NCBI GenBank assembly: GCA_964230215.1
Contig: CAXRGQ010000006.1
Span: 174,106 to 238,105 of the forward strand
DNA from: Flavobacteriales bacterium
GTDB taxonomy: Bacteria > Bacteroidota > Bacteroidia > Flavobacteriales_D > JAUILH01
Reading direction: 5' to 3'
Length of the DNA: 64,000 bases
Positions 22,675-37,610 of this stretch are shown piece after piece. Each line of letters opens with the position of its first letter. The first letter of the stretch is position 1. The translations under genes were made by a program, and so were the position numbers. Below the pieces are notes generated by a model. That model worked only from the letters and a program-made list of their open reading frames with translations. It made no database searches and was not told where the DNA came from.

Positions 22675-23733
22675 ATGAAACTTATTACCCTATCAACACT
22701 ATTACTATTCGTTGTAGCTACACAGGCCCAATATACACCTGAAGATCGTTTTACGGTTAAGCACACACTTGAAGACTTTGGTTTAAAAGGAAATGTGAAG
22801 TCATTTAAGGTGACTCATTATGCTATGAACTATGAAGGGAAGGAGGTTTTATCTGGTTTTCCGCCGAAAGCACACTACCACTTTAACGAGGATGGAAAAC
22901 TGACAAATATGACAGAAATCAATTCGGAAAACGGGGTTAATGCTACTATGACGCTGAAGTATAATGAAGCAGGTCAGTTATTGCATGTAGAATACGACAA
23001 GTCATACAGTGATTATGTAATCAACTTTAATTATGGGAATGATGGCGTACTAAACAGTATATCAAAGACTCAATATCGCACTTACTATGAAAAACAGTTC
23101 ATTTATAATGAGCTTGGAGATATTGAGCGTGTTAAATTCAAAGAAATGCCAATAAGTAAGCAAAATGGCAATGTTGTGGTTAATATCAACAGTACCATAG
23201 AAGAGAAATGGACGGAAACTTGGGTTTATAAGTACGATAAAGAAGGAAAAGTCATATCAATTGAGAAAAAATACCCTGAGCGAGACAATGATGACGACTT
23301 TAACGGTTATGGGGATAATCATGTGAGCTATTTCGAATATCACAAAAATGGGAACATAGCAAAAATGGAGAATAAGGTAGAGGATGAGCAGGAATGGTAC
23401 CCGAGGGTTAAGCAGACCTATAATAAAGATGGTAAGCAAGTTCATTATTACGAAGGAGACTCAATTACCTCACCTCAAATATTCAGCCATGACAAGTATT
23501 ATTATGACAAGGACGGTGAAATGATTGCATCATACAATCATTACACGGGAGATGGTGAGTTTGAGTACTTCAACAAATTCGAGCACACTAGGGACGAGCA
23601 AGGAAACTGGACTGAATGGAAGACCTTGACCAAGTCAACTGCGATTCACCGTAAGCTTGATGATAAGAAAGAGAAAATAGACTACAAGCTTAACAGTCGG
23701 GATGTGCGCGAAATTGAGTATTATGAGGAGTAG
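22675..23733 (+). CDS. secreted repeat protein (MORN/YwqK-like repeats)
   Basis: Signal peptide. Repeated 'Y(N/D)K(D/E)GK...' units throughout. Confidence 0.55.
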   Translation: MKLITLSTLLLFVVATQAQYTPEDRFTVKHTLEDFGLKGNVKSFKVTHYAMNYEGKEVLSGFPPKAHYHFNEDGKLTNMTEINSENGVNATMTLKYNEAGQLLHVEYDKSYSDYVINFNYGNDGVLNSISKTQYRTYYEKQFIYNELGDIERVKFKEMPISKQNGNVVVNINSTIEEKWTETWVYKYDKEGKVISIEKKYPERDNDDDFNGYGDNHVSYFEYHKNGNIAKMENKVEDEQEWYPRVKQTYNKDGKQVHYYEGDSITSPQIFSHDKYYYDKDGEMIASYNHYTGDGEFEYFNKFEHTRDEQGNWTEWKTLTKSTAIHRKLDDKKEKIDYKLNSRDVREIEYYEE

Positions 23734-23745
23734 GTGTAAGTGAAA

Positions 23746-24369
23746 CTATTCAGCACCCAGGTACATAGCATCTCCGCCATATAGTATGCCATACACACTT
23801 CCTGTCGGTTTCTGAAATTGAGACTTGTATATAGAACCTTCGTATGAGCTAGAAACAATAGCGTCATCCTTAAAACTATATTTTATACGTAGACGAATAT
23901 TCGTTTTAAAATCTCCTTTATCCCGCCAAACAGGGAAGAGTACAGTTTTTCCAGACTCCAATATTAATGGATCAAAATAACTATTACCACATCCGCTTGG
24001 CACCCAATACTCTATTGCCTTCCACTTCCCATTTTCATCCTGAGCTTCTTTTATCATCATTAAGCTTCCATCTTGTCTGATTGCTTTGAAAGTAGAATCT
24101 GTTGTATTAATCAGATATCCTGAAAAAAAACGTGGATCACCTTTATCTAGCAACTTGCGGTTTGATGGTTTGATGTCATTTTGCAGTTCTTCTTGATTAA
24201 AGTGGAAGTAGACCTTATTATGAACATAGTTTATAATAGATGTGTCTATAATATCTGGCTCATTGCAGGGATAATATGCGCTCTCTGCCCCTATTGAAGC
24301 CGTATCATTTTGACAAAACGCTGGACCAATACATATAATGTAGGATGTTATTATTAAATAAATCTTCAT
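23746..24369 (-). CDS. secreted hypothetical protein
   Basis: I prefer the start at MKIYLIITSYIICIGPAFCQ (signal peptide). The track's start is 48 nt further upstream. Confidence 0.5.
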   Translation of the reverse strand: MKIYLIITSYIICIGPAFCQNDTASIGAESAYYPCNEPDIIDTSIINYVHNKVYFHFNQEELQNDIKPSNRKLLDKGDPRFFSGYLINTTDSTFKAIRQDGSLMMIKEAQDENGKWKAIEYWVPSGCGNSYFDPLILESGKTVLFPVWRDKGDFKTNIRLRIKYSFKDDAIVSSSYEGSIYKSQFQKPTGSVYGILYGGDAMYLGAE

Positions 24370-24469
24370 AGTTAGTTCGTTAATTTGGTTATTAGCTTTA
24401 ATGAATAACCGTAACAATTGTTACATTAAATATACCGTGTTCGATACTGCGCTGTATTATTTTGCCAGC

Positions 24470-24775
24470 TTAATCAGCTTCTGGAATCTGCTTAATCAAG
24501 TCCACATTCTGATTGTGTTTTGAACTATACGACATCACCAAGGTACCTTTTACCCCATCATTGGCCTCAATTCCAAACACAATGGAATCATCTTGGGGAT
24601 TGGTCATTCCTTCAAATCTAAAAGTATGCACAATGCTTAATTCGCTAGGCAAGTATTTGTTATCTGCATTCCGTGCAACTATTCTTTTATCCTCTGCTCT
24701 GAATCCATCCGTGAAACCTTCTTTAGTAAGGGCGTTTATTGCTAATGAAAGGGATTCGTAACTCTTCGCTATCAT
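24470..24775 (-). CDS. conserved hypothetical protein, 101 aa
   Basis: Clean ORF. The overlapping plus-strand ORF 24513..24761 is antisense. Confidence 0.5.
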   Translation of the reverse strand: MIAKSYESLSLAINALTKEGFTDGFRAEDKRIVARNADNKYLPSELSIVHTFRFEGMTNPQDDSIVFGIEANDGVKGTLVMSYSSKHNQNVDLIKQIPEAD

Positions 24776-24911
24776 TCAATTGTGTTTTATGTGTTCTTAG
24801 TTCAATCTATGCTGGTGTTGTTATTCCCATGCACATTTATAGTATACAAAATAAAACTGTGAATATCAAGCCGAATGATGAGCTCAAGATTAGGTGATAT
24901 TCCTTTGTTAA

Positions 24912-25976
24912 CTAGATTAAGAACCTTTCAAATGTCTCTCCATTGAATTTATACACGCCATTTTTGTGTGTCCCCAACCAAAGCACTCCATTGTTATCTT
25001 TATAGATATAGAAGAGTTCGATATTTTCATTGTTTACCTTAACCGGGTAATGCGTGATTTCTGATCCATCGTATTTCCAAACCCCATCTAAATAGGTCAC
25101 AAACCACAAGTTACCATCATCATCTATTGTCGTTGAGAGGAATTCATCTAAACCGCTTTCTGGATTTCCGTCTAAAGCTCCTATACTCTGACGTCTTGTA
25201 TAAAATTCATCGCTTTTTATTGTGGTGCTATCATAAATGCTATAGCGGTTTTCTGTGTTGAACCAAAAGTCACCATTTTTATCTTCCACTATGCCACGCA
25301 CGCCATTTGCACCTTCATCTCGAAACTCCGTTACATCCTCTTCTGTAATCCAATCCCATGACTCACCATTGTACCGACAAACACCAACTGGATTAGAACC
25401 AAACCACATATTTCCCATTCTGTCTTTATAAATGCTATAGATCTCAAACGAATTGGAAAGATTCGGTGGTTTTGGAATCTGTAATTCGTGCAAGGTGGTT
25501 CCGTCATAACGATAGACTTTCTCGTTTCCGTAGGCATGTTTAAACCAGACGTCTGTTGGATTTAGTTGCCAATCATTACTTGCTACTACAGGCAATGTTG
25601 TTATACTTTCACCGTCAAACTTGGCTATTACAGACTTTGGATGACAGCTGGTAAAGTAAATATTGCCATCAGCATCTTCTTTTATCTCATCTATCCTATT
25701 GTTAGGCAGACCGTGCTCGGTTGTAAAATTAGTCAAGGTTTCGCCGTCATACATATATATGCCCGTATTCCAGCTACCGAACCAATAGTGGTTCTTTTTA
25801 TCTTGATAAATGATCATTATACTGCTCCCGAATTTGGTTACCTTCTCTCCTACTTCAGCTACCTTCTCTCTTGTTTCACTTTTATCTGATTTTACGGATT
25901 GTTCGGTAGCCTGTCCCTTGCAAGCCGTCATTAGAACTAGTGCTGACAGAAGTGTTGCTATGATGGGTTTTAGCAT
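24912..25976 (-). CDS. beta-propeller lipoprotein (two-component-regulator propeller repeats)
   Basis: Lipobox LMTAC. Repeated 'G(N/D)(L/M)WFG(S/T)...GV..Y(D/N)G' blades. Confidence 0.7.
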   Translation of the reverse strand: MLKPIIATLLSALVLMTACKGQATEQSVKSDKSETREKVAEVGEKVTKFGSSIMIIYQDKKNHYWFGSWNTGIYMYDGETLTNFTTEHGLPNNRIDEIKEDADGNIYFTSCHPKSVIAKFDGESITTLPVVASNDWQLNPTDVWFKHAYGNEKVYRYDGTTLHELQIPKPPNLSNSFEIYSIYKDRMGNMWFGSNPVGVCRYNGESWDWITEEDVTEFRDEGANGVRGIVEDKNGDFWFNTENRYSIYDSTTIKSDEFYTRRQSIGALDGNPESGLDEFLSTTIDDDGNLWFVTYLDGVWKYDGSEITHYPVKVNNENIELFYIYKDNNGVLWLGTHKNGVYKFNGETFERFLI

Positions 25977-26028
25977 GGGCTTGATTTCAGTTTACAATGT
26001 ATTGAACAATAACAGAAAAACTTAAAGC

Positions 26029-26508
26029 TTATTGTACTTCATTCTTTTCGCCTGAGGACCATGAATGAATAACCGGCGGCTTCTCAAACAAGTGCCCATA
26101 GTGTTCGGCTAAAATCCTGTAAAGCTCTGGATATTTTGCCTCTCCCATCTGCGACAGGTAGATAATATCGGTTTTGTTTTTCCCCTTAATTTCTAGCAAT
26201 GCGTTTTTAGGCATCATACCCGAATTTTGAGCCAAAGTATTCCCCTTAATGGATTGGCCTATGCTTGCAATATCTTCTTTTTTGATTGTTTTCCCCGTTT
26301 TTTGAAGTACTCTTCGGGCATTTACCTCATAAGGTGTTATGGTGATTGTTCTAATAGAGAGAAACAGAATCACGCTTATTGCGAAAAAGATGAAAGCTAG
26401 CCACCACGGAAGGATGGATTGGTCTACTACAATTAAAGCAATTCCAATACCCAAGCATATAACTATGGGGGTGATGTTGTTAGACGATTTAGAGATTACT
26501 TTTTCCAC
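26029..26508 (-). CDS. membrane protein, hypothetical
   Basis: Two N-terminal TM helices followed by a soluble domain. Confidence 0.5.
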   Translation of the reverse strand: MEKVISKSSNNITPIVICLGIGIALIVVDQSILPWWLAFIFFAISVILFLSIRTITITPYEVNARRVLQKTGKTIKKEDIASIGQSIKGNTLAQNSGMMPKNALLEIKGKNKTDIIYLSQMGEAKYPELYRILAEHYGHLFEKPPVIHSWSSGEKNEVQ

Positions 26509-26553
26509 CCATTAATTGTTCTGACGTTTCTTCCTGCTACTAAAGATATACCT

Positions 26554-27360
26554 TTATTCTACTTTATTATTAAGGACCTCCATAGTTTGAATAATTTCAA
26601 TAACGGAATCCTCATTTAAATCCTCTTCTTTGTATTTTGATAATTCAGAGGGTGTTAGCAATCTATAATACTCCCGATATAAGTTTAGGTAACAGTAAAC
26701 ATCTTTATTTGATTCATTATGATTATAACTGCTACTAAACAAATCTTTAAGATAATCCAATAGTTCCTTATACTTGCCAGCATTGTATAATAACTCTGCT
26801 TTTCTTGAGCATAATGAGGATTCTGATTCACAACTACATGCGTTTACTCCTTGTTCAATAGATCTAAGAATTAATTTATCACAATAAAAGATGGCGCTAT
26901 CATACTCTTTGTTAGACTCATGCATAGCGAGTAATCTATAATAGACTTGCTTAGTTAGCATGTCTCTCTCGTCTTTTTCAATCACTATTTTATAATCATG
27001 TACGGCCTTGTCATGCTCGTTTATAGCGAAATAATAGTTTGCTCGTGTATAATAATAGTGGGCTATCGTAACTTCCTTAAAGCCTTCTAGCTCTATCTCA
27101 TTGTCAATTAAGAGGCCTATGTCATTGAGAAAATCATTGTGAAGGGTTTTCCTTTCTGATTTACTTAATTGTTCTGATCCACCCAACATTCTGCCAAGTA
27201 ATTTTGCTCTTCTCCAATGCAGGACATAATTAGTAGAATCTGACTTATTTATTTTCTGATTTAATGCATCCAGGTTTTGCTTATTGAACATGTTAGGGTC
27301 TGGTTGAGCCAAAACAAAAGACACAGATAATAGTACCAGCAGTAGTGAAATCAACTTCAT
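26554..27360 (-). CDS. secreted TPR-like repeat protein
   Basis: Signal peptide and helical repeats rich in Y/A/K. Confidence 0.55.
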   Translation of the reverse strand: MKLISLLLVLLSVSFVLAQPDPNMFNKQNLDALNQKINKSDSTNYVLHWRRAKLLGRMLGGSEQLSKSERKTLHNDFLNDIGLLIDNEIELEGFKEVTIAHYYYTRANYYFAINEHDKAVHDYKIVIEKDERDMLTKQVYYRLLAMHESNKEYDSAIFYCDKLILRSIEQGVNACSCESESSLCSRKAELLYNAGKYKELLDYLKDLFSSSYNHNESNKDVYCYLNLYREYYRLLTPSELSKYKEEDLNEDSVIEIIQTMEVLNNKVE

Positions 27361-27393
27361 ATATTGTGATACAGATTAGGAGGGAAATCGTTC

Positions 27394-27511
27394 AAGGTAA
27401 TGGGCTAAAATGTGGTTGCCCCAAGGCTTTATTTTGTATAAAAAAAATTAAATTTCTGCTACATACTGGCATAGAGACCTGAGGGTGTATGCAATTATGG
27501 TGTTGTTGGCA
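27394..27511 (-). repeat. attC-like site A (decayed terminal copy of the ~127-bp family)
   Basis: Aligns to sites B, C and D (GGGC..TAAAATG..TGCCCCAAGG, GAGACCTGAGGGTGTATGCAATTATGGTGTTGTTGGC). The right box GTTGGCA is at 27505-27511. The left AAC box is lost. It starts 10 nt after the stop of ORF 27522..27827. Confidence 0.5.
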
Positions 27512-27521
27512 ATAATTACCT

Positions 27522-27827
27522 TTATCTACGTCTTGTTTTATTTTGTCTGTTTTTCTCTCGAATTTTCTCTTTCCTCTCAGCATCAGCAGCTTCTTTTTTA
27601 TATTCCTTATGCATCCAGCTTATGATAAATATGCAAATGATAAAAGGACATAATGTTATAAAGAAACCCCAAAATCGGTTCCGAGTGTGCTGAGCACTTC
27701 CCCATTCATCGTATTGTTTCAAGTCTTTTCCCCATGGTGTAGAATAAAAACCTGAATAAATACAATATAGGTAGTTTATAATAAAGTTACCTGCCAATAA
27801 AAACAACCATATTGTCGAGGATTTCAT
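27522..27827 (-). CDS. cassette ORF: small membrane protein, 101 aa, with a basic tail
   Basis: Three hydrophobic helices. The ATG lies 6 nt from the box of site B and the stop lies 10 nt from site A. Confidence 0.6.
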   Translation of the reverse strand: MKSSTIWLFLLAGNFIINYLYCIYSGFYSTPWGKDLKQYDEWGSAQHTRNRFWGFFITLCPFIICIFIISWMHKEYKKEAADAERKEKIREKNRQNKTRRR

Positions 27828-27833
27828 AATTGT

Positions 27834-27960
27834 TGCTAACGGGGCAGGGTAAAACGCGTGTGCCCCAACGTTTAGTTTATCTAATATACGTATTATTGTT
27901 TTGGGTACTCATTATTCGTTTGGAGACGTGTGGGCATATGCGATTTACCCGTTGTTGTGG
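27834..27960 (-). repeat. attC-like site B (127 bp)
   Basis: Plus strand reads TGCTAAC-GGGGCAGGGTAAAACGCGTGTGCCCC...GGGCATATGCGATTTACCC-GTT-GTTGTGG. The arms form a ~19-25 bp imperfect stem with a 3/6-nt unpaired spacer next to the AAC/GTT boxes. Confidence 0.65.
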
Positions 27961-28229
27961 TGCGTTTTTATTTTTTCTTCGATTAATTTCTTCGCTATTA
28001 TTAGACAATGTTCACGACTTCCAATAACCCCAATCGTTTCGGTTTCAATTTTATAAAGTCTGTCCGCAATTTCTTTCTCTGTTTTATTGTGAATTAGTAA
28101 GGAGAAAATTTCTGGCACGTAACTTTGATACTCATCTCTGGGTGCAAAGTCATTCACTCCAATCGGGTCCCATTCGTTCCATAGGATTTCGTCAACAGAA
28201 TTATATAATTTTTTTTGCTCGCTCGTCAT
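27945..28229 (-). CDS. cassette ORF, 94 aa hypothetical (WDPIGV...DEY motif, immunity-protein-like)
   Basis: Overlaps the upstream ORF by 4 nt. Its stop codon lies inside site B (GGGTAAATCGC). Confidence 0.55.
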   Translation of the reverse strand: MTSEQKKLYNSVDEILWNEWDPIGVNDFAPRDEYQSYVPEIFSLLIHNKTEKEIADRLYKIETETIGVIGSREHCLIIAKKLIEEKIKTHHNNG

Positions 28230-28513
28230 TCTTTGTCTTCTTGCGATACAAATGGATATTCGGAAAAATAGACATCCATACCAATCATTCCCATTGTTTT
28301 CATTGATGCGGCGTTCAATACTCCACCGCCACCGTTTGCGTCTTTCCTTATGTCAAATCCAATGTCAGCTATATATTTACTTGGCTTTAATGTTTTCCCT
28401 TTATCCATCAGCCAAGTTTCAAGAGCATCAATTTGTGTAGGTAAATCCCATGCTTCATCACATAGCCATTCCAATTTTTCTCCTGAGTCTTCGATATAAA
28501 TATTTATTGGCAT
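28226..28513 (-). CDS. cassette ORF, 95 aa hypothetical
   Basis: The ATG lies 20 nt from the CCACAAC box of site C. Translationally coupled to the next ORF. Confidence 0.55.
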   Translation of the reverse strand: MPINIYIEDSGEKLEWLCDEAWDLPTQIDALETWLMDKGKTLKPSKYIADIGFDIRKDANGGGGVLNAASMKTMGMIGMDVYFSEYPFVSQEDKE

Positions 28514-28533
28514 TTCTCGGTTCTTTTAATGCA

Positions 28534-28660
28534 CCACAACGGGGCAGGGTAAAACGCGTGCCCCAAAACGTTTTGTTTATCTAAAAATACAAAATATAAT
28601 TTCAGCTACTAATTATACGTCTGAAGACGCGAGGGGTATGCGATTTACCCGTTGTTAGGC
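28534..28660 (-). repeat. attC-like site C (127 bp) with a canonical GTTAGGC core
   Basis: Reads CCACAAC-GGGGCAGGGTAAAACGCGTG-CCCC...GGGGTATGCGATTTACCC-GTT-GTTAGGC. It shares 23-nt and 20-nt identical arm segments with site B. Confidence 0.7.
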
Positions 28661-28841
28661 TTAGTTACATAAAAATCATTAAATTCATTTCTTTTGAAAA
28701 ATTATCGGATTACTACAAAAAATAAAAGGTAAAACAAGCGTTTGGCAAGCCATAGTAATTGCGTTTTTTATTGGATGCGCAATTTGGGCTTATTGGCAAG
28801 AAAGGGAATTAAAGGAAAATCATGTATATTGTATAGGGACG

Positions 28842-29087
28842 GTGATAAAAAAGTGGAGAATGGTGAGTGGTAGACAAGTGCGGGTTAAATTTTATTATCG
28901 TGGAAAGTGGCGAACCGCCTCCGAAAATCAGGGGAATCATAAATTAGAAATAGGGGATAGAGTTTATGTGAAAATTAACCCGGAAAATGAATACACCCGA
29001 ATAATGCATGAGTATATTGCTTGCGATAGCCTAGAAACGGGACAACAGCCAACAGAAGGTTGGAAAGAAATACCATGCTTAAAATAA
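28842..29087 (+). CDS. hypothetical protein (DUF3592-like: TM helix plus beta domain); start unresolved, possibly frameshifted
   Basis: The frame is open from 28698 and encodes a TM helix (WQAIVIAFFIGCAIWAYW), but it has no ATG, GTG or TTG before 28842. A TTG at 28694 opens a 12-codon frame that would join after a 1-nt shift in an A-run. Confidence 0.4.
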   Translation: MIKKWRMVSGRQVRVKFYYRGKWRTASENQGNHKLEIGDRVYVKINPENEYTRIMHEYIACDSLETGQQPTEGWKEIPCLK

Positions 29088-29089
29088 TA

Positions 29090-29578
29090 CTACCTTACGT
29101 TTATAGCTATAAGCCAGGAAATAAGACCTGACAAAAGAATTGTAGTAATCGCAAATGCTATAGGATACCTTGTTGCTAGGTTATCGTTGAGATTTAGATT
29201 ATTAATTTCTTTATCAATTTGTTCCCTAACTAGAGGTGCTATTTCTTTCTGAAATTTTAGCGCATCAAATTCAAGTTGCTGCTTTTCCTTGTTTTCTTTT
29301 AATTCTTGCTGTAGCTTTTTAACATGCAATAAGTAACCACCAAAATCAACTATGTCAATACCATGTTGAGTTATATAAATTTCGTTTTGATGTCTAGGTG
29401 TACCTTTTATTATTAATCGATCACTTATCATTTCTGTAATTAATGCATTTTTCTCAATGTCATTCATATTAATATCACACGCTTCAAAAACTTTGAGATA
29501 ATGCTTTGCGTCTGCACAGTCACGTAAGTAATTAAGTATTGCGTCTATATTTTTATGTTTTGAGCTATTCTCGGTCAT
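29090..29578 (-). CDS. cassette ORF, 162 aa, coiled-coil protein with a C-terminal TM anchor
   Basis: I moved the start to MTENSSKHK (ATG 29576-29578), 8 nt inside the GCCTAAC box. The track's 29665 start would read across the recombination-site-like sequence. Confidence 0.55.
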   Translation of the reverse strand: MTENSSKHKNIDAILNYLRDCADAKHYLKVFEACDINMNDIEKNALITEMISDRLIIKGTPRHQNEIYITQHGIDIVDFGGYLLHVKKLQQELKENKEKQQLEFDALKFQKEIAPLVREQIDKEINNLNLNDNLATRYPIAFAITTILLSGLISWLIAINVR

Positions 29579-29586
29579 AGAATTAA

Positions 29587-29636
29587 GCCTAACTACGGGA
29601 TAAACCCAATTAACAAATAAATCTACATATAAATCC
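29587..29636 (-). other. attI-like half-site 1 (R box, L box and direct repeats)
   Basis: GCCTAAC (complement of site C's GTTAGGC), then TAC, then GGGATAAACCC. The motif ATAAAYC occurs three times (29600, 29617, 29629). No partner arm is present. Confidence 0.5.
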
Positions 29637-29685
29637 ATCAACAAGCAAAAAAGAACTAATAGCATGATTTACAAATACATATGTA

Positions 29686-29872
29686 TTTACAAACGACTGT
29701 AAACGTCATTTAAATACTTATCTACCGACTAGTACTTTTCAACTCCCCCATCTTTGCACCGTCGATTGAAACAAAGCCGGCTTGTGACAAAAGACACCGT
29801 GCCTAATGTGCAGATAACTAATAACGAAAACATACATACACATTAGGAAATGTTAAACCTTAATTTTTTAAA
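29686..29872 (+). promoter_or_regulatory. conserved ssb leader/promoter region, copy 1
   Basis: Near-identical in both copies. It has a CATCTTTG box (TAnnTTTG-like), the palindrome AAGCCGGCTT (29773-29782), and a 9-bp hairpin CCTAATGTG (29802-29810) / CACATTAGG (29839-29847). Confidence 0.45.
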
Positions 29873-30205
29873 ATGAACAACTTAAGAAACAAAGTACAGT
29901 TAATCGGGAATGCGGGAATGGAACCTGAAATTAAAGATGTAAACGGAAGTAAATTGGCTAAACTATCCATTGCTACCAACGAAACATACACCAACAAATC
30001 AGGTGAACGTGTTACAGACACACAATGGCACAACATTGTTGCCTGGGGAAAGACAGCCGAGTTAATTGAACGTTTCGTTACAAAAGGTAAAGAAATAGCG
30101 ATTGAAGGCAAACTAAACACTCGCTCATACGAAGATCAAGATGGTAATAAACGTTATGTGACGGAGATTATCATGAATGATTTCTTGCTGTTGGGTGCTA
30201 AGTAA
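29873..30205 (+). CDS. ssb: single-stranded DNA-binding protein, short form (110 aa, no acidic C-terminal tip)
   Basis: OB-fold SSB pattern: NKVQLIGNAG..PE...LAKLSIATNE...GERVTDTQWHNIVAWGKTAELIERFVTKGKEIAIEGKLNTRSYEDQDG.KRYVTEI. Confidence 0.85.
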   Translation: MNNLRNKVQLIGNAGMEPEIKDVNGSKLAKLSIATNETYTNKSGERVTDTQWHNIVAWGKTAELIERFVTKGKEIAIEGKLNTRSYEDQDGNKRYVTEIIMNDFLLLGAK

Positions 30206-30238
30206 ATGGAGTAGCCCATATTTTCTCTCATAAACTTA

Positions 30239-30273
30239 AGTCCTGTTCTGAAATTTTCGAAGCAGGACTTTTA
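30239..30273 (+). terminator. rho-independent terminator of ssb copy 1
   Basis: AGTCCTGTTCTG...AGCAGGACT followed by TTTT. The stem is homologous to the copy-2 terminator. Confidence 0.7.
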
Positions 30274-30280
30274 TTGCATA

Positions 30281-30853
30281 TTAAAAGTCTTTTAAAACTA
30301 AGCCTTTGCCAGTGTAATCAACTAATAATTGCTTACCCTTCAATCCCATCCTCTCTAATTCTTCATCTTCTGGCGCAAAATGATGATTTATATTTAGGTA
30401 GATTTCGTTCAGTCCATCTGCATCAAAATCATGAACTACAAAAGCCGGTAAGTATTCTCCTATTTCATTTGAATGCTGTATTTCCTCTGGATAAGGGAAG
30501 TCCGTATAAATAATTGGGAACTCAATACGCTGAGCAACTGTGGACAAGCCGACTTCAAGGTGATAGTATGCATGAGCGCCACCATTACTGATAAAACATA
30601 TTGTGTCTTTTATACCATCCTCATCAAGATCCCACAAATCTGTATATTCATAATGCAAAAGGTCCACTGCCAAAGTCGAATCGTACACATAATGTGCGTA
30701 TTGTGAATTTGGGAGGTCTACAAACTGACTATCTTCAATTGAGTGTGCCTTTACAGTTGACGAATCTATACTTTCATTGCTTGCATGAACTTCTGGTTTT
30801 TTCTCAGAATTACACGCGATTGCAATGACTAGTATAGGGATATATTTCTTCAT
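30281..30853 (-). CDS. lipoprotein, hypothetical (D-x-D-x-DG calcium-binding-like motifs)
   Basis: Lipobox VIAIAC. Contains DLDEDGIKD and DFDADGLNE. Confidence 0.5.
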   Translation of the reverse strand: MKKYIPILVIAIACNSEKKPEVHASNESIDSSTVKAHSIEDSQFVDLPNSQYAHYVYDSTLAVDLLHYEYTDLWDLDEDGIKDTICFISNGGAHAYYHLEVGLSTVAQRIEFPIIYTDFPYPEEIQHSNEIGEYLPAFVVHDFDADGLNEIYLNINHHFAPEDEELERMGLKGKQLLVDYTGKGLVLKDF

Positions 30854-30915
30854 ACTAATGACTTTACAAATATATCATCTCATCAAATAAATATTGATAA
30901 GGTCGGCCTAGAAAC

Positions 30916-31332
30916 TCAATTTAGCCGTCTAAAGCCAATTGTCTGATTGGTTGTTTTAAGTAAGAAGTGGTCATGATCAACAAAGTTTATTTGACCAAAA
31001 ATAAACGTGTCTTTTTTAGCGCTTGACACCGAGAAAGTAGTCAAAGTGCTATCACGTATCATCCATTCGTAATAGTGTGAACTATCAATTTCAATAGGTA
31101 CTAAGTAGTTCTGCTCAAATATACCGTCCTTATGAAAGCTGAATACATAGCCATCCATTTCTGAATAATCAATTGATAAAAATGTAAATCCTTCTTTAGG
31201 GATGCCCTCAAAATTATTCTCAACAGAAACTAGATTCCAGCTACCCACAATATCGTTTGTTACGTTTTTCGTATCCTCCAGTGATGAACAGGCAGCCATC
31301 AAAATAATTGCTATGTAAATAAAGCTTTTCAT
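30916..31332 (-). CDS. lipoprotein, hypothetical (lipocalin-like size)
   Basis: I prefer the start at MKSFIYIAIILMAAC (lipobox). This removes the overlap with hipA. Confidence 0.5.
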   Translation of the reverse strand: MKSFIYIAIILMAACSSLEDTKNVTNDIVGSWNLVSVENNFEGIPKEGFTFLSIDYSEMDGYVFSFHKDGIFEQNYLVPIEIDSSHYYEWMIRDSTLTTFSVSSAKKDTFIFGQINFVDHDHFLLKTTNQTIGFRRLN

Positions 31333-31339
31333 ATCTGGA

Positions 31340-32653
31340 TTATTTAAATCTAGGAGCAATTAAGGTGTTTAAAATCAAATCCCTTAGTTCTTGTGACACA
31401 TTTGTCTTCGTGGCGTACTCTCTCCAGTTACACACCACTGATTTAATCTCTTCAATTATCTTTTCGCCCTTTTTTATGCTGTTATCTGAGGCAATTTTAA
31501 TTAAGTCTGAAGTATTAATGTCCTTGTGTTTCCCACAAATACTTAGCGTATGCTGACTTACCCAAACGTTTTTTGGATCGTACGAATAGCAGACATCATA
31601 GGCTGGCGCCAACTCCCATTTTCCATGTTGTTTCAACATGAATGAAAAGTTCTTGGTGTGGTCGTCATAATTAGTCGCCATCACATTAAACACCATTCTT
31701 CTGAACATCTGCTCGGCCTCTGGATAGGTCATTCTTAACATCCGCATAGTCTGAAATAGCTGCTCATAACTGTAGCCGTATAGGTTGTTGTAGTCGAAAT
31801 GTTGAATGCCGCAGAATGTCTGAATATGATGCTTATCATTATTCCCCTCCCTATCAAAACGTTTGGTCATAAAATGTGCCCTATCATTCTCCTCTAACAA
31901 TTTACTTTCCATCATTTCAATGCCACAGTCTCTAGCCATCAAGTAATAGGCATACTCTACTCTTCCGTAACCAGAACTAACACCGAATTGCGTATCACTT
32001 ACACCATCAAGTTTAATTAACCAGTGTTCGAATCCTTTGGGGACATTGCTCTGACCAGACCTTACTTCACCCGTTTTTTGATTATAAGCGATTACAGCTT
32101 TTGGCCTAGCACCGCCTGCAGAAGTACCAATAGTGAGTATCTCACGCATTGCCTTTTGCTCATCTTTATGCAGGTTGGTTTCGAACTTCTCTCTGTTCGA
32201 CAACATTTTGTGTGCTATGTCTACTAAGCTTTTAATTTCGATAGCAAACGTTCTTTCTTTAGGTTTTATCTGTGCAGGCTCAAATTCCAAAGCACCCATT
32301 CCCCTTGAGCCAATGAAACAAAGTTGTTCGACAGGGTTCATACTATTCGGTGCGCGACCTTCTTGTGCTAACCAGATATTTATCAATTGATTTCCATATT
32401 TATCTGGCAGTGCATCTGCCAATAAACCCGGAAGCCCTTTGAAAGTGGATGTCTCTTCCCCTTTCTGTTTTCTCAATTCCGGAAAACTGTATATGCGGTC
32501 TCCATTACTTATAGGCATTTTTAATGGAGATAGGTCAATGTCCTTTGCAAGAAACTTTTTATCAAATTGAAAACTGGCTAGCTGACGATTTTCGTCCCAG
32601 CGAGCGGCACCTACGAGTTGTCCCCAAATTTTTATTTCTACTACATCTACCAT
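31340..32653 (-). CDS. hipA: HipA-family serine/threonine kinase toxin (type II TA)
   Basis: 437 aa. N-terminal HipA-coupling region and a C-terminal kinase core with GGARPK and DDHTKNFSF. Confidence 0.85.
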   Translation of the reverse strand: MVDVVEIKIWGQLVGAARWDENRQLASFQFDKKFLAKDIDLSPLKMPISNGDRIYSFPELRKQKGEETSTFKGLPGLLADALPDKYGNQLINIWLAQEGRAPNSMNPVEQLCFIGSRGMGALEFEPAQIKPKERTFAIEIKSLVDIAHKMLSNREKFETNLHKDEQKAMREILTIGTSAGGARPKAVIAYNQKTGEVRSGQSNVPKGFEHWLIKLDGVSDTQFGVSSGYGRVEYAYYLMARDCGIEMMESKLLEENDRAHFMTKRFDREGNNDKHHIQTFCGIQHFDYNNLYGYSYEQLFQTMRMLRMTYPEAEQMFRRMVFNVMATNYDDHTKNFSFMLKQHGKWELAPAYDVCYSYDPKNVWVSQHTLSICGKHKDINTSDLIKIASDNSIKKGEKIIEEIKSVVCNWREYATKTNVSQELRDLILNTLIAPRFK

Positions 32654-32994
32654 TCGGATGCCTCATTAGATGAATCGCCTTTGCTGCTAGCTCTACTTCT
32701 TTTGTTTTTCTGAAGTTTGGCATATTCAATTGGACTTATTTCATCATTAACTTTAAAAGCGTCCATTATAAACAGTAGGTCTAACACTCTTAACACTTGA
32801 ATCAGACTCATCAAGTTCACCTTTTCACCACGCTCTAAAAGACTCAGTGTAGAACGGCTAATATTTGCAGCTTCAGCCACTTCATTTTGAGATTTGTTCT
32901 GATTTAAGCGGTGATGTTGGACAAATTTCCCTATGGTTTCAACGAGCGATTTATCACTCATCGAATACCAATCAATGTATGAATTATCATTCAT
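32647..32994 (-). CDS. XRE-family HTH antitoxin (HipB-like)
   Basis: Overlaps hipA by 8 nt. HTH segment KSQNEVAEAANISRSTLSLLERGE. Confidence 0.75.
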   Translation of the reverse strand: MNDNSYIDWYSMSDKSLVETIGKFVQHHRLNQNKSQNEVAEAANISRSTLSLLERGEKVNLMSLIQVLRVLDLLFIMDAFKVNDEISPIEYAKLQKNKRSRASSKGDSSNEASEW

Positions 32995-33013
32995 ATTACG
33001 CTTTTTATATTAT

Positions 33014-33023
33014 TAACGCGTTA
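33014..33023. promoter_or_regulatory. candidate operator palindrome upstream of the hipB-like gene
   Basis: Perfect 10-bp palindrome TAACGCGTTA, 20 nt upstream of the start codon. Confidence 0.3.
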
Positions 33024-33170
33024 TATATCATTCAAATATACACATAAGATTTCAGACACACAACACTTGATGAATGATTTATCACTCACTAACTTCAAAT
33101 TAAAAGCCTAGTGAATTGTTTTTCATTCAAAACAAAGACACATATATCTTGTTTGAACAAAAATATACAA

Positions 33171-33542
33171 CTACCTATGCTGATCAATCAGAATAGCATT
33201 GCCATCAGGGTCTTTAAGCACTATGCTCGCTGGTCCGTTAGTGCTTTCGTCTGCTCTGCTGTCCAGTACTATTCCTTGTGACTCAAGGTGCTTTTGAATA
33301 TCTCTTACATCCTCAAACGGGTCTACGTTTTGTGCACTCTGGTCCCAGCCTGGGTTAAAAGTGAGAATATTGCCTTCAAACATGCCTTGGAAAAGACCTA
33401 TAACGGTTTCTCCGTTTTTCATTATCAGGTAGTTTTGTTCCATGTTGCCTGCAAACATTTCGAATCCCAATTTCTCATAGAATTCCTTTGATGTTTGTAA
33501 GTCTTTTACGCTTAGACTGATTGAGTGTGCTCCCAGTTTCAT
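33171..33542 (-). CDS. VOC (glyoxalase/bleomycin-resistance) family protein
   Basis: 123 aa. [20 protein letters not shown] and DPDGNAILI are typical of the VOC fold. Confidence 0.75.
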
Positions 33543-33606
33543 GTTTTGTTAGTTTGATTTGATTGCTTTTTTAATATTAATCTTGCTTAATGATATTTGA
33601 CAAATT

Positions 33607-34260
33607 CTAATCCCGCACAAAAAATGTCTTAGAGATAATTTCTTGATAACTGTTATTCCTTTTACCATTTAAACGAAAAACGATAATATCATTATCACCT
33701 GGTAATACCAGATAACATGATTTAACTCTGTCAAGGCCAATGCATCCTTCACATGTTAGTGTTACCTCAGTGAATTCAGGATCATAAGCAGTAAAGATTT
33801 TATTTTCTTCGCTTCTAATGAGGGTGTCGCTTTCAGATTCGTTATAAATTCTATTAAGCGATGAATCAGGTGCAGCATTATAAATAAAATATCTGGTAGA
33901 GACTAACTGTCTATGTCCTGTATTTAGCGTGAATTGTAATTGATATGGTTTTTTGATTTCGGTCTTATCTGAAAGTAATTTAAACGGAAGTTCTATTTGT
34001 CCCAATTCCTCACTTGGAATTAAGTGTGTGCCTATACCATACACTGTCCCATATATCCCAACAAGATTTGCGTTAATCGTATACTGGGCAGTACTATCAA
34101 AATCTGCTGAGTCAATAGCATATTCAAATCCAACCTTAAATTTATCAGGTAATACTTCATCATTATTAACGGGCTGAGAAATTACCTCTAAGTATCCCTG
34201 TGCTTCACATGGTATCGCTAAAGCAAATAAGATGGAGCTGGTTATTATAAATCGAAACAT
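33607..34260 (-). CDS. secreted hypothetical protein, 217 aa
   Basis: Signal peptide (LFALAIPCEAQ). Confidence 0.5.
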   Translation of the reverse strand: MFRFIITSSILFALAIPCEAQGYLEVISQPVNNDEVLPDKFKVGFEYAIDSADFDSTAQYTINANLVGIYGTVYGIGTHLIPSEELGQIELPFKLLSDKTEIKKPYQLQFTLNTGHRQLVSTRYFIYNAAPDSSLNRIYNESESDTLIRSEENKIFTAYDPEFTEVTLTCEGCIGLDRVKSCYLVLPGDNDIIVFRLNGKRNNSYQEIISKTFFVRD

Positions 34261-34463
34261 TCAATTTTTATTTAATTTATTGGACTACAAAATACATTAT
34301 TCTAACGTCTATTTCCACTCTTATTAGACGCCATCTTCTTCTGTATTGTATCATTAGCGGTATACTGCCAATGCTCTTTCAATTTAAGTAATAATTCTCT
34401 GGCGTCATAATAATCACAGTAAGCGGCTAAGGGAAACTTTTTACAGGAAATTATATTCTGTGC

Positions 34464-35003
34464 TTAGAAACTTTGTGGCGCTTGAAGCTGTGACCTTATT
34501 ATTTGAACAAACTTATCATATTTCTCTGGTCCCAGTAGTTGCTTTGATATAATATCGAACAATTCATTATTTGCCAGATACAAGTATACATCATCACCAT
34601 TAATTGAATATGATCTTATGGCTGTCCATTTGGTTTCCGAATTATGATTTTCAGACACGTATTTAATTGTATTTGAGTCAAAGTAAAATGTATAAGCCAT
34701 ATCCATGGATTTATTTCGCTGGTCTAATTCTTTTAAAGATCTGTCCCTTACTAATTGAAAGCGAATGAGAAATACTAACAGATACAATACTGAAATGCCA
34801 ATACTAACACAACCTATTATCCATAGTATGCGAATCTTTAGAGCTAATCCTGATGCAATCAAAGCACAACACACTAAAGCCCCAAGCCAAACGGGCAACT
34901 TCTTTAATTCACGTTGCTGTTCATACTTGAAATACTTCTCAAATATCTGCCTAGTTCTTTCTTTATCATATATTATCCTTACTTCCTCCAAGTCTAAAAT
35001 CAT
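34464..35003 (-). CDS. YcxB-like membrane protein
   Basis: Two central TM helices followed by a C-terminal beta-rich domain. Confidence 0.45.
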   Translation of the reverse strand: MILDLEEVRIIYDKERTRQIFEKYFKYEQQRELKKLPVWLGALVCCALIASGLALKIRILWIIGCVSIGISVLYLLVFLIRFQLVRDRSLKELDQRNKSMDMAYTFYFDSNTIKYVSENHNSETKWTAIRSYSINGDDVYLYLANNELFDIISKQLLGPEKYDKFVQIIRSQLQAPQSF

Positions 35004-35085
35004 TTAAGTAAAGTGGTGCACATACAGGTATTTTATACGTTTTATGTTTAATAATTTAATATTTAGCACGTATCATATTCCTAAA

Positions 35086-35640
35086 CTATTGAATCAATCT
35101 TAAATCAGAAATATTAAGACTTAATACTACCAAACCTATTTTATTGAATTCTATTTGGGTCTCAGTAGATATTTTGGTGATTACCTTATTTAGGTTTTGT
35201 AAAATCTCTTCAGATTGCATTTTACTCAAAACCTCCCGTGACCTTCCGATAGAAATATCTTCAACAAGGTGAGTTATATCTGCACGTGAACAGCCAAGCA
35301 ACCTTTCCACAGCATTCATGGTATATTTGGGATCAGTCGAAATGGCTGCTTTAATTGTTGTTGCCATCCTAACACGTTTGTTATCTTCTGTGATATACAT
35401 AGCTGAGTTGATATCCACATGATATGGGGTTAAATCTAGAAAATCATATTCTTGAATGATAGGCCAAACAAAAGCTCTCCCCCCGTGAACAAGCTTATAT
35501 AACTCTCCTGTTTCAATCTTCCCGTATATAACCATTATTTTATCTGGAGGACACTTAATTAACCGTTTGAATAATACAACTATCCATAGAACTAGCATTA
35601 ATCCAAATGCCCCAAGAAAGATAAGAAGTGAGTCGTCCAT
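35086..35640 (-). CDS. SPFH/band-7 (flotillin N-terminal-like) domain membrane protein, short form
   Basis: N-terminal TM helix, then IKCPPDKIMVIYGK...GGRAFVWPIIQEYDFLDLTP. Only ~184 aa, lacking the flotillin coiled-coil. Confidence 0.55.
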   Translation of the reverse strand: MDDSLLIFLGAFGLMLVLWIVVLFKRLIKCPPDKIMVIYGKIETGELYKLVHGGRAFVWPIIQEYDFLDLTPYHVDINSAMYITEDNKRVRMATTIKAAISTDPKYTMNAVERLLGCSRADITHLVEDISIGRSREVLSKMQSEEILQNLNKVITKISTETQIEFNKIGLVVLSLNISDLRLIQ

Positions 35641-35691
35641 TGTTATTGTTTTAGGTAAGAGAGTTTGGTTTTCGTGATGTAAATCTTATCC

Positions 35692-36225
35692 TTAACGCCT
35701 TTTCCTTTTAGAAATCTTTTTAGGTTTATATTCAACTATTTCAAATCCGAGTTTATCACTAAGCTCCTTGATTTTACTTTTGGCGGCAGATAATGAATCA
35801 GCTTGTTGTATTACAAACTTGCTTAAATGATTGTCATTAAGTAAAACGATTGTAAACACCTGGTCACTAAACTGGCTTGGCAATGCTCCTCTCATGTTCA
35901 TGTTATAAGCAACATTGGTACTGGTTATTGCCAAATACTTGTATGGGTTTAAGTCTCTCCATTTACCCCATTTTAACCCAAGTGATGAAGAGAATTTGCG
36001 CAATTTCTTTTTCTCTAAGTCAATTTCAACGCCTTCATATGAGCTCAGAATAAATGCACCCGCTATAAAAGCTACAATACCTGCGATTGGTCTTGCAGAA
36101 GGACTAACCGCTATTTCTACTTTATCAGGTGTGGAGATTAATACAATACCAAATATTATAAGCAAAACAGCAACTACAATGAACATCACTGGGAAAGTCA
36201 AGCCGAAATTTTCTTTTATTCTCAT
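35692..36225 (-). CDS. membrane protein, hypothetical
   Basis: I prefer the start at MRIKENFG. Two TM helices, a soluble domain and a basic tail. Confidence 0.45.
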   Translation of the reverse strand: MRIKENFGLTFPVMFIVVAVLLIIFGIVLISTPDKVEIAVSPSARPIAGIVAFIAGAFILSSYEGVEIDLEKKKLRKFSSSLGLKWGKWRDLNPYKYLAITSTNVAYNMNMRGALPSQFSDQVFTIVLLNDNHLSKFVIQQADSLSAAKSKIKELSDKLGFEIVEYKPKKISKRKRR

Positions 36226-36281
36226 AATGATTTTCAAACAAGCCAAGTGGCATTGATTAAGAATGAATTATATCCGTTTTT

Positions 36282-36566
36282 TTAGTTACCACAGTTTTCT
36301 TGAGCTTTCAGGTATTCTTTCTCCGCCAGATCTTCAAGTTCTTGAATCTCATTTTCCTTCATCCCAGATTCTTTCGCATCTTCAATCACTTCTAGAATTC
36401 TATTCTCAGCTTCTACCATGCCCTGCTCATCCCTTTCGCACCAAGCTTGACCTTTATCCATTGCATATTCCTTAATTAGCTCTTTCGGTTTCTTGGAGTT
36501 ACATGAGGATATGACAATTCCTCCTGTAACAATTAATGCTTGTATTAATCTTAAACTGAATATCAT
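36282..36566 (-). CDS. small acidic lipoprotein
   Basis: I moved the start to MIFSLRLIQALIVTGGIVISSC (lipobox), 9 nt from site D. The track's N-terminal extension reads into the repeat. Confidence 0.5.
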   Translation of the reverse strand: MIFSLRLIQALIVTGGIVISSCNSKKPKELIKEYAMDKGQAWCERDEQGMVEAENRILEVIEDAKESGMKENEIQELEDLAEKEYLKAQENCGN

Positions 36567-36575
36567 ATTAAACAA

Positions 36576-36708
36576 TACTAACGGGGCAGGATATAGCGGA
36601 TGCCCCACAGGTTTAGTTTATCTAATATACGGATTATTATTTCGGGTAATTATTGTCTGTTTGGAGACCTAAGGGCACATGCAGTTTAATCATTGCTGCA
36701 TGTTAGTC
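36576..36708 (-). repeat. attC-like site D (133 bp, same family as B and C)
   Basis: TACTAAC-GGGGCAGGATATAGCGGATGCCCC. The central GTTTAGTTTATCTAATATAC...GTTTGGAGAC is shared with B. The site ends ...GGGCACATGCAGTTTAATCATTGCTGCAT-GTTAGTC. The hepT stop codon TAA sits inside the GACTAAC box. Confidence 0.65.
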
Positions 36709-37044
36709 ATCTAGAAACTTCTTTACTTCAGGTAATAACTTAGGCAGGTCTTTGGTTACAATGGCCCAAATTATTGCATCCGAAATTGTGTCATAACCAT
36801 GTATTATTCTATTTCTTGTATCCACAATTTTTCGTGCGTTTTCAATTGGGAAATCACTTTGGAGTTTTAGAATTCGATTTACTGCTTCTCCTATAATTTC
36901 AAGACTTCTCTCAATTGCTCGCTTAGTCTTTAAATCATTCTGGAATTCAAAATAATTCCTTTTTTCTGGCAGGAATGAGTTAATCTCTAGTATGGCGTCA
37001 TGAATATCAATTAACCAAACTTTAATTTCTTTCTCCATACACAA
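36703..37044 (-). CDS. hepT: HepT (DUF86) ribonuclease toxin
   Basis: R-x4-H-x-Y motif (RNRIIHGY). 113 aa. Overlaps mntA. Confidence 0.8.
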   Translation of the reverse strand: MCMEKEIKVWLIDIHDAILEINSFLPEKRNYFEFQNDLKTKRAIERSLEIIGEAVNRILKLQSDFPIENARKIVDTRNRIIHGYDTISDAIIWAIVTKDLPKLLPEVKKFLDD

Positions 37045-37330
37045 GAACTTTTGATTTATCTATTTCAGATTTTAAAAGCTGATTTCTGATAGCTCCATCC
37101 TCTAATAGATCAATCTTTCTATTAAGAAGTTTTTCCAGTTGGAATTTCAGATTAAAGTATTTTTCCGAATAAGAAATGGGATCACTATCCTCAATGGATA
37201 CAATAAGATCAATGTCGCTTTCGTCATTAAATCTATCAGTTGTTACTGAACCAAAAGCGAATAATGTAGACACCCTATTACTAGAGCATAACTCCTTAAT
37301 TTGGGCAATATATTTATCCAAATATGCCAT
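37022..37330 (-). CDS. mntA: MntA nucleotidyltransferase antitoxin
   Basis: GSVTTDRFNDESDIDLIV (GS...DxD). I moved the start to MAYLDKYIAQ. The track's extension to 37447 reads through site E. Confidence 0.75.
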   Translation of the reverse strand: MAYLDKYIAQIKELCSSNRVSTLFAFGSVTTDRFNDESDIDLIVSIEDSDPISYSEKYFNLKFQLEKLLNRKIDLLEDGAIRNQLLKSEIDKSKVLVYGERN

Positions 37331-37388
37331 CCTCATCCAAAGATACGAATAGTAAGGTAAAGTAGTTTCAGTCCTATTGGTTAATGTG

Positions 37389-37455
37389 ATGCAACGGTCC
37401 GTGTATGTTGTCGTAGCATCCCAAAGGGTGCTATGCAATATACACATTGTTGTGT
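37389..37455 (-). repeat. attC-like site E (67-bp short hairpin type)
   Basis: ATGCAAC-GGTCC-GTGTAT-GT-TG-TCG-TAGCA [loop TCCCAAAGGG] TGCTA-TG-CA-AT-ATACAC-ATT-GTTGTGT. It is an imperfect palindrome with bulges and AAC/GTT ends. Confidence 0.6.
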
Positions 37456-37584
37456 TTTCGTGCTTTATTTAATTCTTTTTCAGCGGTGGTAAAGCCATAC
37501 TCTTTTACAATTTTTGGTTATAGCGTTGGCTGGTGCGAATTGCAAATGTGTATGGTTTTAAGCGTTGGGTTGATTTCTGAGTGT

Positions 37585-37610
37585 TACTTATAGTCTTTGA
37601 TTTATAGTCC
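37585..37610 (+). promoter_or_regulatory. tandem C-boxes (controller-protein operator)
   Basis: TACTTATAGTC-TTTGA-TTTATAGTC matches the GACTnnnAGTC x2 architecture of R-M controller operators. It lies ~23 nt upstream of the C-gene start. Confidence 0.6.

Follow-up and report, generated by a model that had tools for sequence, protein, structure and literature searches.

Integrons are defined by the trio of an integrase gene (intI), an attI insertion site and the cassette promoter Pc, and cassette arrays that lack an integrase are usually dismissed as debris. An attI adjoins intI, normally in divergent orientation. The attI of class 1 integrons is made of a simple site with two inverted boxes (L and R) and of the accessory direct repeats DR1 and DR2. 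Cassettes also enter non-classical genomic insertion sites, named attG, which carry G-W-T at the cleavage point, in the centre of a minimal site of ~18 bp, and a right-hand motif CRGM at +6 to +9 (Loot et al., bioRxiv 10.1101/2022.09.11.507474). Clusters of attC sites and single attC sites without an integron-integrase are known as CALIN and SALIN, respectively (Cury 2016, Neron 2022, PMC9024848), and complete integrons are reported to be rare in the Bacteroidetes (PMC9024848). We analyzed a stretch of 64,000 nucleotides of contig CAXRGQ010000006.1 (assembly GCA_964230215.1, a Flavobacteriales bacterium), referred to below as the window, in which two small cassette arrays each begin beside a copy of ssb. 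Judged by AccC, the organism falls in an uncultured lineage of the Flavobacteriales, with ~64% identity to named metagenome-assembled genomes. The sequence at 29593-29650, together with its twin at 41608-41665, probably forms the constant half, on the side of the chromosome, of a junction at which cassettes of the integron type are inserted; in function it would be the attI of the array, with a built-in promoter and no linkage to intI.

The site resembles attI, as known from attI1 of class 1 integrons and attIA of the Vibrio cholerae chromosomal integron, in several respects. It stands at the head of the array, immediately 5' of the first cassette; it is a duplex sequence that forms no hairpin; and the crossover, placed within GTT at the level of sequence, is G|TT, with TTRRRY contributed by the first cassette. 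A promoter directly upstream is predicted to read into the cassettes, and various cassettes occur at the one junction. Unlike attI, it is not adjoined by intI, the place of which is held by ssb and its promoter, and no L box inverted relative to R is recognizable. The putative accessory repeats are not conserved, and a second copy of the site lies 12 kb away beside a second ssb.

With attG the site shares its position on the chromosome, as a duplex site away from intI, the G-W-T at the point of cleavage, a nearby host promoter and small arrays without integrase; its right half is now cassette DNA. Sites of the attG type are numerous and of low specificity, whereas here one site was reused by at least four cassettes and has a conserved box like the inner arm of attC. 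The arrays are two small attC clusters of three and two sites, and over tens of kb around them no integrase is present; IntegronFinder would class them as CALINs. A CALIN is mostly interpreted as a decayed integron or a rearranged piece with no defined head, whereas these arrays have a defined, conserved head site with a predicted promoter and turnover of the first cassette. The order box-spacer-GTT resembles the L'-spacer-R' arm of the local 127-bp attC family; unlike attC, the site has no complementary arm, fold or variable loop, and would therefore provide no single-stranded hairpin substrate. Literature searches yielded no description of such an integrase-less head site.

Different first cassettes at one junction

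The crossover AA|C, which reads G|TT on the gene strand, marks the exact start of both ssb-proximal sites. Alignment of copy 1 with copy 2, proposed in an earlier note on this DNA, showed that identity of the copies starts precisely at AAC|TAC and runs through the ssb promoter region, ssb and the terminator, over ~690 bp (78-98%). On the chromosomal side, conservation sets in at C29593, the base that appears as the G of G|TT when the gene strand is read. The GCCTAA that the earlier note had included in a recombination box is DNA of the first cassette, complementary in 13 of 14 positions to GTTAGGCTTAGTT at the far end of the attC of that cassette.

Relatives were taken from loci fetched via ssb homologues, 95-99% identical (handles of the form L086). 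These close relatives have one ssb each, with the core Nudix gene next to it. The block GGGATAAACCCAATTAMCAMATAAATCTA is kept in the L086 group and in L090, and the sequences to the left of the block are unrelated to one another: ..TTAAGCCTAAC, ..GAAACACAAC, ..ATGAATGCCAAC (L086, before |TACAGGG) and ..AATGACGCCCAAC (L090, before |TACGGG). Written for the minus strand, the junctions are ...CCCGTAG|TTAGGC (copy 1), ...CCCAGTAG|TTGTGT (copy 2), ...TGTAG|TTGGCA (L086) and ...GTAG|TTGGGC (L090). Four unrelated first cassettes, two of the window and those of L086 and L090, thus meet an identical nucleotide, and no homologues of the L090 and L086 cassettes were found in the window. L090 has a type-1 site identical to copy 1 and an ssb that is 99% identical, yet its cassette is a different one. 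The cassette of L086 ends in GTTGGCATT, complementary to its own start in 9 of 9 positions.

Since four different cassettes abut the same nucleotide when the alleles are compared, the site appears to be the insertion and excision point at the head of the cassette array; in this the earlier note, which had proposed it as the primary insertion site, was borne out. What clearly exceeds chance is the junction, that is, the exact start of identity at AAC|TAC combined with the 9-14 nt over which each flanking cassette end can pair with an arm of its own attC.

In L086 (8690-8760, compared with 22675-23000 of the window) the array is down to one cassette, and a deletion extends from inside its attC into the neighboring 352-aa gene, of which a 63-aa stub is left. 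That L086 might be an empty site, or one with a single cassette and a short attC, was rejected, because homology to the 352-aa core gene runs into the supposed attC, as expected for a deletion leaving an R' remnant.

Sequence of the site and absence of a partner arm

The letters and positions given in the earlier note were confirmed: GCCTAAC at 29587-29593, TAC at 29594-29596, GGGATAAACCC at 29597-29607 and AATTAAC at 29608-29614, with ATAAAYC at 29600, 29617 and 29629. The order on the minus strand is TTTG-N20-TAGATTTA, 10 nt, GGGTTTATCCC and (N)GTAG|TT. Within the window the GGGATAAACCC box is found only at the two copies, and the 16-mer GGGATAAACCCAATTA is exact in both (the second at 41613) and occurs nowhere else. 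The GGGTTTATCCC box lies 3-4 nt from GTT and is like the L' box of attC, not like an inverted R box; the candidate direct repeats are not conserved.

Searches for a partner of this box were all empty, in agreement with the earlier note, which had seen no complementary arm nearby. Neither an arm like GGGTTTATCCC on the + strand (up to 2 mismatches) nor an arm like GATTTACCCGTTGTT was present near either copy, no inverted repeat involving the box was detected within 200 nt, and the 86-nt site segment folded no better than shuffles on either strand (minimum free energy of -1.9 and -2.0 kcal/mol, z ~0). A split attC with a hidden partner arm was rejected on these results, and the ssb-proximal site appears to be a duplex site and not a hairpin.

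A predicted leftward promoter and the ATAAAYC repeats

The sigma-A promoter of Bacteroidetes reportedly has a -33 TTTG and a spacing of ~19-21 nt. Its -7 box, TAnnTTTG, lies at -12 to -5 (PMC9723704). Of only three strict matches to TTTG-N19-21-TAnnTTTR in the window, two fall at the attI-like sites. Six alleles, L084 and L093 among them, have TTTG-N20-TA[GA]ATTTA in an identical place; the same 20-nt spacing is found in L086, L090, L084 (TAAATTTA) and the distant L093, the ssb of which is 76% identical. In L084 and L093 the promoter motif is present without the GGGATAAACCC box. In copy 1 the predicted transcription start (~29613) falls inside AATTAACAAA of the core; the crossover follows after ~20 nt, and the first cassette gene, with its ATG at 29578, after 35 nt. 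In copy 2 the start is predicted at ~41629. At the level of the motif, a promoter upstream of the array and reading into it on the cassette strand is shared by the six alleles.

The three ATAAAYC repeats had been compared in the earlier note to the accessory direct repeats of class 1 attI. Repeat 1 (29600) is part of the box that resembles the L box of attC, and repeat 2 (29617-29623) lies inside the -7 element of the leftward promoter. Repeat 3 is located in the promoter spacer and is restricted to the type-1 allele (copy 1 and L090); it is CAAAATC in copy 2 and TAAAATC in L086. Because the promoter motif persists in L084 and L093 without the box, repeat 2 is best explained as the -7 element of a native promoter in the region upstream of ssb. 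The ATAAAYC repeats seem to be incidental: repeat 1 comes with the box, repeat 2 with the -7 element and repeat 3 with a spacer sequence specific to one allele. The layout of a simple site plus accessory repeats did not hold, since repeat 3 is not conserved and repeat 2 belongs to the promoter. The earlier note had stated that its layout would be contradicted if genomes with the same ssb leader did not conserve the pattern; L084/L085 share this leader, do not have the pattern and read TATAGTTTCACTCATCCACTTACCCCCTAAATTTACC at this position.

attC sites and cassette boundaries

A hidden Markov model (HMM) built from three obvious 127-bp repeats was run over the window and identified five attC-like sites, A to E (Table 1). 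On the + strand the elements of each site follow in the order YAAC, 5-nt spacer, inner box, variable stem-loop, complement of the inner box, 3-nt spacer and GTT. Sites B, C, D and E, as well as the degenerate A, are imperfect palindromes with AAC...GTT ends and inner L''/L' boxes past an unpaired spacer. The genes adjoining the sites are all on the minus strand, each located 5' of its site. The + strand, which is opposite to the genes and corresponds to the bottom strand of integrons, folds better (-22.0, -23.7 and -14.5 vs -16.3, -19.7 and -11.3 kcal/mol); the gain of 3-6 kcal/mol is due to G-T pairs. The hairpin of site E, which has one bulged T, gave z = -3.6 (+ strand).

Cassette boundaries fall at G|TT, and every cassette opens with a sequence complementary to R'', the outer arm of its own attC. 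In array 1, the start of cassette 1, TTAGGCTTAATT (in the pairing, AATTAAGCCTAAC), pairs with the outer arm GTTAGGCTTAGTT (28654-28666) in 13/14 positions; in cassette 2, GTTGTGGTGC (27954-27963) pairs with GCACCACAAC (28531-28540) in 10/10; and the boundary of cassette 3 reads GTTGGCAATAAT where GTTAGCAACAAT was expected (10/12). In array 2, AAACACAAC (41600-41608) and GTTGTGTTT (37449-37457) are complementary in 9/9 positions for cassette 1, and the outer arm of cassette 2 is GCTGCAT instead of GTTGCAT (6/7), a point mutation in the conserved triplet. The circular junction predicted for cassette 1 of array 1 is ...TTTACCCTGCCCCG|TTAGGCTTAATT. This complementarity corresponds to the circular-permutation signature of integron cassettes and not to that of repetitive extragenic palindromes (REP) or miniature inverted-repeat transposable elements (MITE), since the inverted repeats of the latter lie within one element.

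Beyond sites A and D the boundary rule gave no further cassette boundaries, and the other intergenic regions do not fold; the original right half of the site is now at the distal ends of the arrays, where no boundary is recognizable. A generic attC finder that demanded R''/R' pairing within one site was discarded: it gave 15 matches, compared with 10-23 in shuffles, and missed the true sites. A metagenome scan with AACGGGGCAGGNTANANCG returned at least 120 single, chance-like matches, and none of the matches listed fits the site HMM. The plasmid database had no match to attC or to the attI-like site, and an Rfam scan of the window at gathering thresholds identified only tRNA-His.

Co-oriented genes without attC occupy 23746-27390 and 30281-36573. 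A block of 1.27 kb at 33172-34444, comprising a glyoxalase gene, a 217-aa gene and 184 nt upstream, is shared with L084 (4956-6223) at 89% identity and has no recognizable attC at its ends. The 4.2-kb cassette at 37395-41607 is a complete restriction-modification system, with a helix-turn-helix (HTH) controller, two open reading frames (ORFs) without Pfam match and an Eco57I-type methylase. Two toxin-antitoxin pairs were found on the cassette side, HipA with an Xre-type HTH protein (31340-32994) and a HepT-like MNT/HEPN pair (36703-37447); such pairs are typical content of chromosomal cassette arrays.

Table 1. Coordinates of the attI-like sites, predicted promoters, attC-like sites, cassettes and ssb units in the window.
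Feature	Position	Strand	Length	Description
attI-like core, copy 1	29593-29617	-		crossover base C29593; TAC spacer 29594-29596; L-box-like GGGATAAACCC 29597-29607; AATTAACAAA
attI-like core, copy 2	41608-41633	-		crossover base C41608; TACT spacer; box GGGATAAACCC 41613-41623
Predicted leftward sigma-A-type (Pc-like) promoter, copy 1	29618-29649	-		-33 TTTG 29649-29646; 20-nt spacer; -7 box TAGATTTA 29625-29618
Predicted leftward promoter, copy 2	41634-41665	-		TTTG-N20-TAGATTTA
attC-like site A	~27390-27511			degenerate; AAC now AAG; nhmmer E = 4e-6
attC-like site B	27834-27960		127 bp	found by HMM
attC-like site C	28534-28660		127 bp	found by HMM; folds best on + (bottom) strand
attC-like site D	36576-36701		~127 bp	found by HMM
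attC-like site E	37389-37455		67 bp	sequence unlike the others, same architecture
Array 1 cassette 1	28540-29592	-		gene 29578-29090; 127-bp attC (site C)
Array 1 cassette 2	27840-28539	-		95-aa and 94-aa genes; attC site B
Array 1 cassette 3	27396-27839	-		101-aa membrane protein; degenerate attC site A
Array 2 cassette 1	37395-41607	-	4.2 kb	restriction-modification system; short attC site E
Array 2 cassette 2	36582-37394	-		MNT/HEPN toxin-antitoxin pair; attC site D
Native ssb unit, copy 1	29650-30275	+		TTTACAAA repeats; -7 box CATCTTTG 29749-29756; 5' untranslated region; ssb 29873-30205; terminator hairpin
Native ssb unit, copy 2	41666-42315	+		ssb 41889-42221, then core Nudix gene

Proposed mechanism and points that weigh against it

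Recombination of single-stranded attC with a duplex attI, followed by replicative resolution, has reportedly been described for integrons. At the ssb-proximal site, a tyrosine recombinase of the integron-integrase kind would pair the duplex site with the folded bottom-strand attC of a circular cassette. A single strand would be exchanged at G|TT and replication would resolve the product; the inserted cassette would come to lie ~20 nt downstream of the leftward transcription start and be expressed from that promoter. The enzyme may recognize the GGGTTTATCCC box, as at a dedicated attI. Alternatively, the site may be a hotspot of the attG type that needs little beyond GTT: strict dependence on the box is doubted because of the 1-nt length polymorphism between box and crossover and because of the divergent L084 allele.

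Several observations weigh against a constant junction half that acts as attI. No integrase was found in Pfam scans of ~60 ORFs of the window. When the window and ~90 ssb loci (L001-L093) were searched by tblastn with IntI1 and XerD as queries, no tyrosine recombinase was detected except in L056, a distant locus with a Xer-like gene 5 kb from ssb. The contexts of the cassette homologues contained no IntI; the only integrase there, in L225/L230, is of the Bacteroidetes type and belongs to an unrelated integrative element. Because no tyrosine recombinase gene was found in the window or, L056 apart, in the related ssb loci, the enzyme would have to act in trans, encoded elsewhere in the genome. 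The 127-bp sites have an A-A mismatch, and the canonical extrahelical G and T bases are not evident in them. The likeness of the box to an L'-spacer-R' arm, which the earlier note had pointed out, was found again in a match of GGGATAAAC with the attC inner box GGGTAAAAC in 7 of 9 positions; with a rough p of ~0.08 allowing for offsets, the likeness to the inner (L') box of the 127-bp sites is suggestive only and not statistically compelling. The spacing from box to crossover shifts by 1 nt among alleles (GTAG, AGTAG, TGTAG), which would be odd for a precisely placed binding site. At the homologous position, L084/L085 also show a junction (..ATCAAC|TATAG), but another sequence replaces the box there, so that the box may not be required. 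The activity of the leftward promoter is predicted from its motif only. Finally, the differences between first cassettes could in part be due to allelic replacement by homologous recombination and not to a fresh insertion in each lineage.

Alternative explanations

The last point is taken furthest by an explanation in which the site is an inactive relic, a deletion scar formed, for example, when the L'-R' half of a former attC was joined to the region upstream of ssb, and in which the first cassettes arrived by homologous recombination of whole alleles. This would account for the resemblance of the box to the L' box of attC (GTTTTACCC vs GGTTTATCCC) and for the lack of an integrase nearby. It also fits the many co-oriented genes without attC and the coexistence of type 1 and type 2 alleles in the population, in tandem in this genome; deletions do remodel the locus, as the L086 attC truncated into the 352-aa gene illustrates. 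Nevertheless, four unrelated cassettes at one nucleotide still call for site-specific events in some ancestor. Copy 1 and L090 share an identical type-1 site (ssb 99% identical) and carry different cassettes, which points to recent turnover, and the attC sites B and C are nearly intact and ~90% identical. We regard an inactive relic as unlikely. A dedicated attI of the class 1 kind, in which the three ATAAAYC repeats would serve with a simple site as accessory integrase-binding sites, appears improbable as well. Three ATAAAYC on the same strand within 40 nt (36 nt in copy 1) were obtained in only 1 of 2000 block shuffles when the motif was taken as pre-specified, and repeats 1 and 2 keep their sequence and 17-nt spacing in both window copies, the L086 group and L090. 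However, the choice of the motif was made post hoc, and triples within 40 nt are formed by seven other hexamers as well on the + strand of the window; for these reasons the triple repeat alone is weak evidence. Besides the variability of repeat 3, repeat 2 is explained by a -7 box that is kept where box and cassettes are absent or unclear (L084, L093). The accessory repeats of attI1 reportedly resemble the R box GTTA...; the repeats here are unlike an R box, and there is no adjacent intI.

It is very improbable that the locus is not related to integrons at all, the 127-bp elements being palindromes of the REP or MITE type or Xer/dif-type modules and the likeness at ssb a coincidence. That no IntI was found, that the repeats are REP-like intergenic hairpins at the 3' ends of genes and that Rfam has no match to them would agree with such an origin. 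Against it, the complementarity joins the outer arm to the far end of the adjacent gene unit and not the two ends of one element, sites of 67 and 127 bp with very different sequences share the AAC/GTT ends and the boundary rule, and one cassette follows different sites from genome to genome, the sequences parting precisely at G|TT. Target-site duplications were not seen, nor was a 28-bp dif-like core.

Implications of an integrase-less head site

For an array without integrase, a defined and conserved head site, a predicted promoter of its own and turnover of the first cassette among near-identical strains are notable features, and these cassettes and attC families also circulate between marine Bacteroidota that are not related to one another. 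If a trans-acting integrase recognizes the head site, platforms for cassette capture could be uncoupled from intI and seeded at housekeeping promoters, which would change the counting of integrons in genomes; the locus would also be a natural test case for the origin of attI from genomic attG hotspots. A 60-bp target and matching attC donors are now defined for a direct recombination assay in an unexplored clade.

A more speculative proposal, to which we give a rather low probability, is that of a natural attI without intI: a hotspot in the divergent ssb promoter region would have become a dedicated head site, with an L-box mimic and its own promoter, served by an integrase in trans, and would have been duplicated with ssb to found the second array. 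In that case the marine Bacteroidota would run a dispersed integron system, with many integrase-less head sites at core genes (ssb; rplT in L215/L217) and one pool of attC cassettes, and the site would represent a living intermediate on the proposed path from attG to attI.

Related cassettes in other Bacteroidota

The 95-aa gene of cassette 2 in array 1 has homologues with 60-87% identity in many genera of Bacteroidota. They were found in Mesonia, Maribacter, Pontibacter, Owenweeksia, Dysgonomonas and others. A second small gene, which varies, always accompanies the 95-aa gene and points to a two-gene module, toxin/immunity for instance. In many contigs a break falls directly at this cassette gene (27840-28539; L214-L230). 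The homologous cassette in L217, L215, L219-L224 and L225 starts at the same G|TTGTGGTRCATTAAA (G|TTGTGGTRC; G|TTGTGGTRCATTAAAA), with differing sequences upstream, and the homologous cassettes end in an attC whose R'' (ACACCACAAC) matches their own start. The E-type attC is 86% identical between the window and the unrelated contig L217 and is also present in L219-L224; two compensatory base pairs were identified across four sites. Taken together, these comparisons indicate that the cassettes are mobile among Bacteroidota.

L215 and L217 differ by one cassette at ...GTCAGACCTAAATATAAG|TT beside infC-rpmI-rplT, a junction that would be a second integrase-less head site, in another organism. When L215 (1-60) was compared with L217 (1900-2540), the cassette was present or absent at ...TAGGTCTGACTGAGTCAGACCTAAATATAAG|TT downstream of infC-rpmI-rplT, with no integrase nearby; the site includes a 10-bp palindrome and a third copy of CAGACCTA. 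The link of the head site to ssb is therefore lineage-specific and probably incidental.

The ssb unit and its duplication

The ssb product was assigned to the Pfam family SSB (E = 1e-29). The whole unit is present twice, 12 kb apart (29593-30275 and 41608-42315), the copies being 78-98% identical; relatives have one copy, of either allele type. The decamer repeats TTTACAAACG, the -7 box CATCTTTG and the structured 5' untranslated region (5'UTR) are kept upstream of a short ssb of 110 aa in ~80 Flavobacteriia genomes, in which neither the box nor detectable sites of these attC families were found. The ssb leader was therefore rejected as an integron-specific element, given its conservation in these genomes without cassettes, and it appears to be the native promoter region of ssb. 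The ssb unit as a cassette in its own right was also rejected, because the right-hand junction of copy 1 (~30276) has no attC, no G|TT and no site-specific signature.

Tandem decamers TTTACAAACG / ACTACAAACG upstream of the -33/-7 promoter of ssb (29667-29705; 41700-41720; L003-L082) resemble an array of regulator-binding sites serving the short ssb gene. The 5'UTR of ~110 nt contains a perfect 9-bp hairpin, CCTAATGTG...CACATTAGG (29802-29810/29839-29847 and 41817-41825/41854-41862), that is invariant in all close relatives; it may be a leader structure for autoregulation. The assemblies L002 and L083 break at the repeat formed by the ssb unit. At 2597-5781, the window also has three to four tandem paralogous genes of ~315 aa without Pfam match (repeat families D4 and D5; 77-78% identity).

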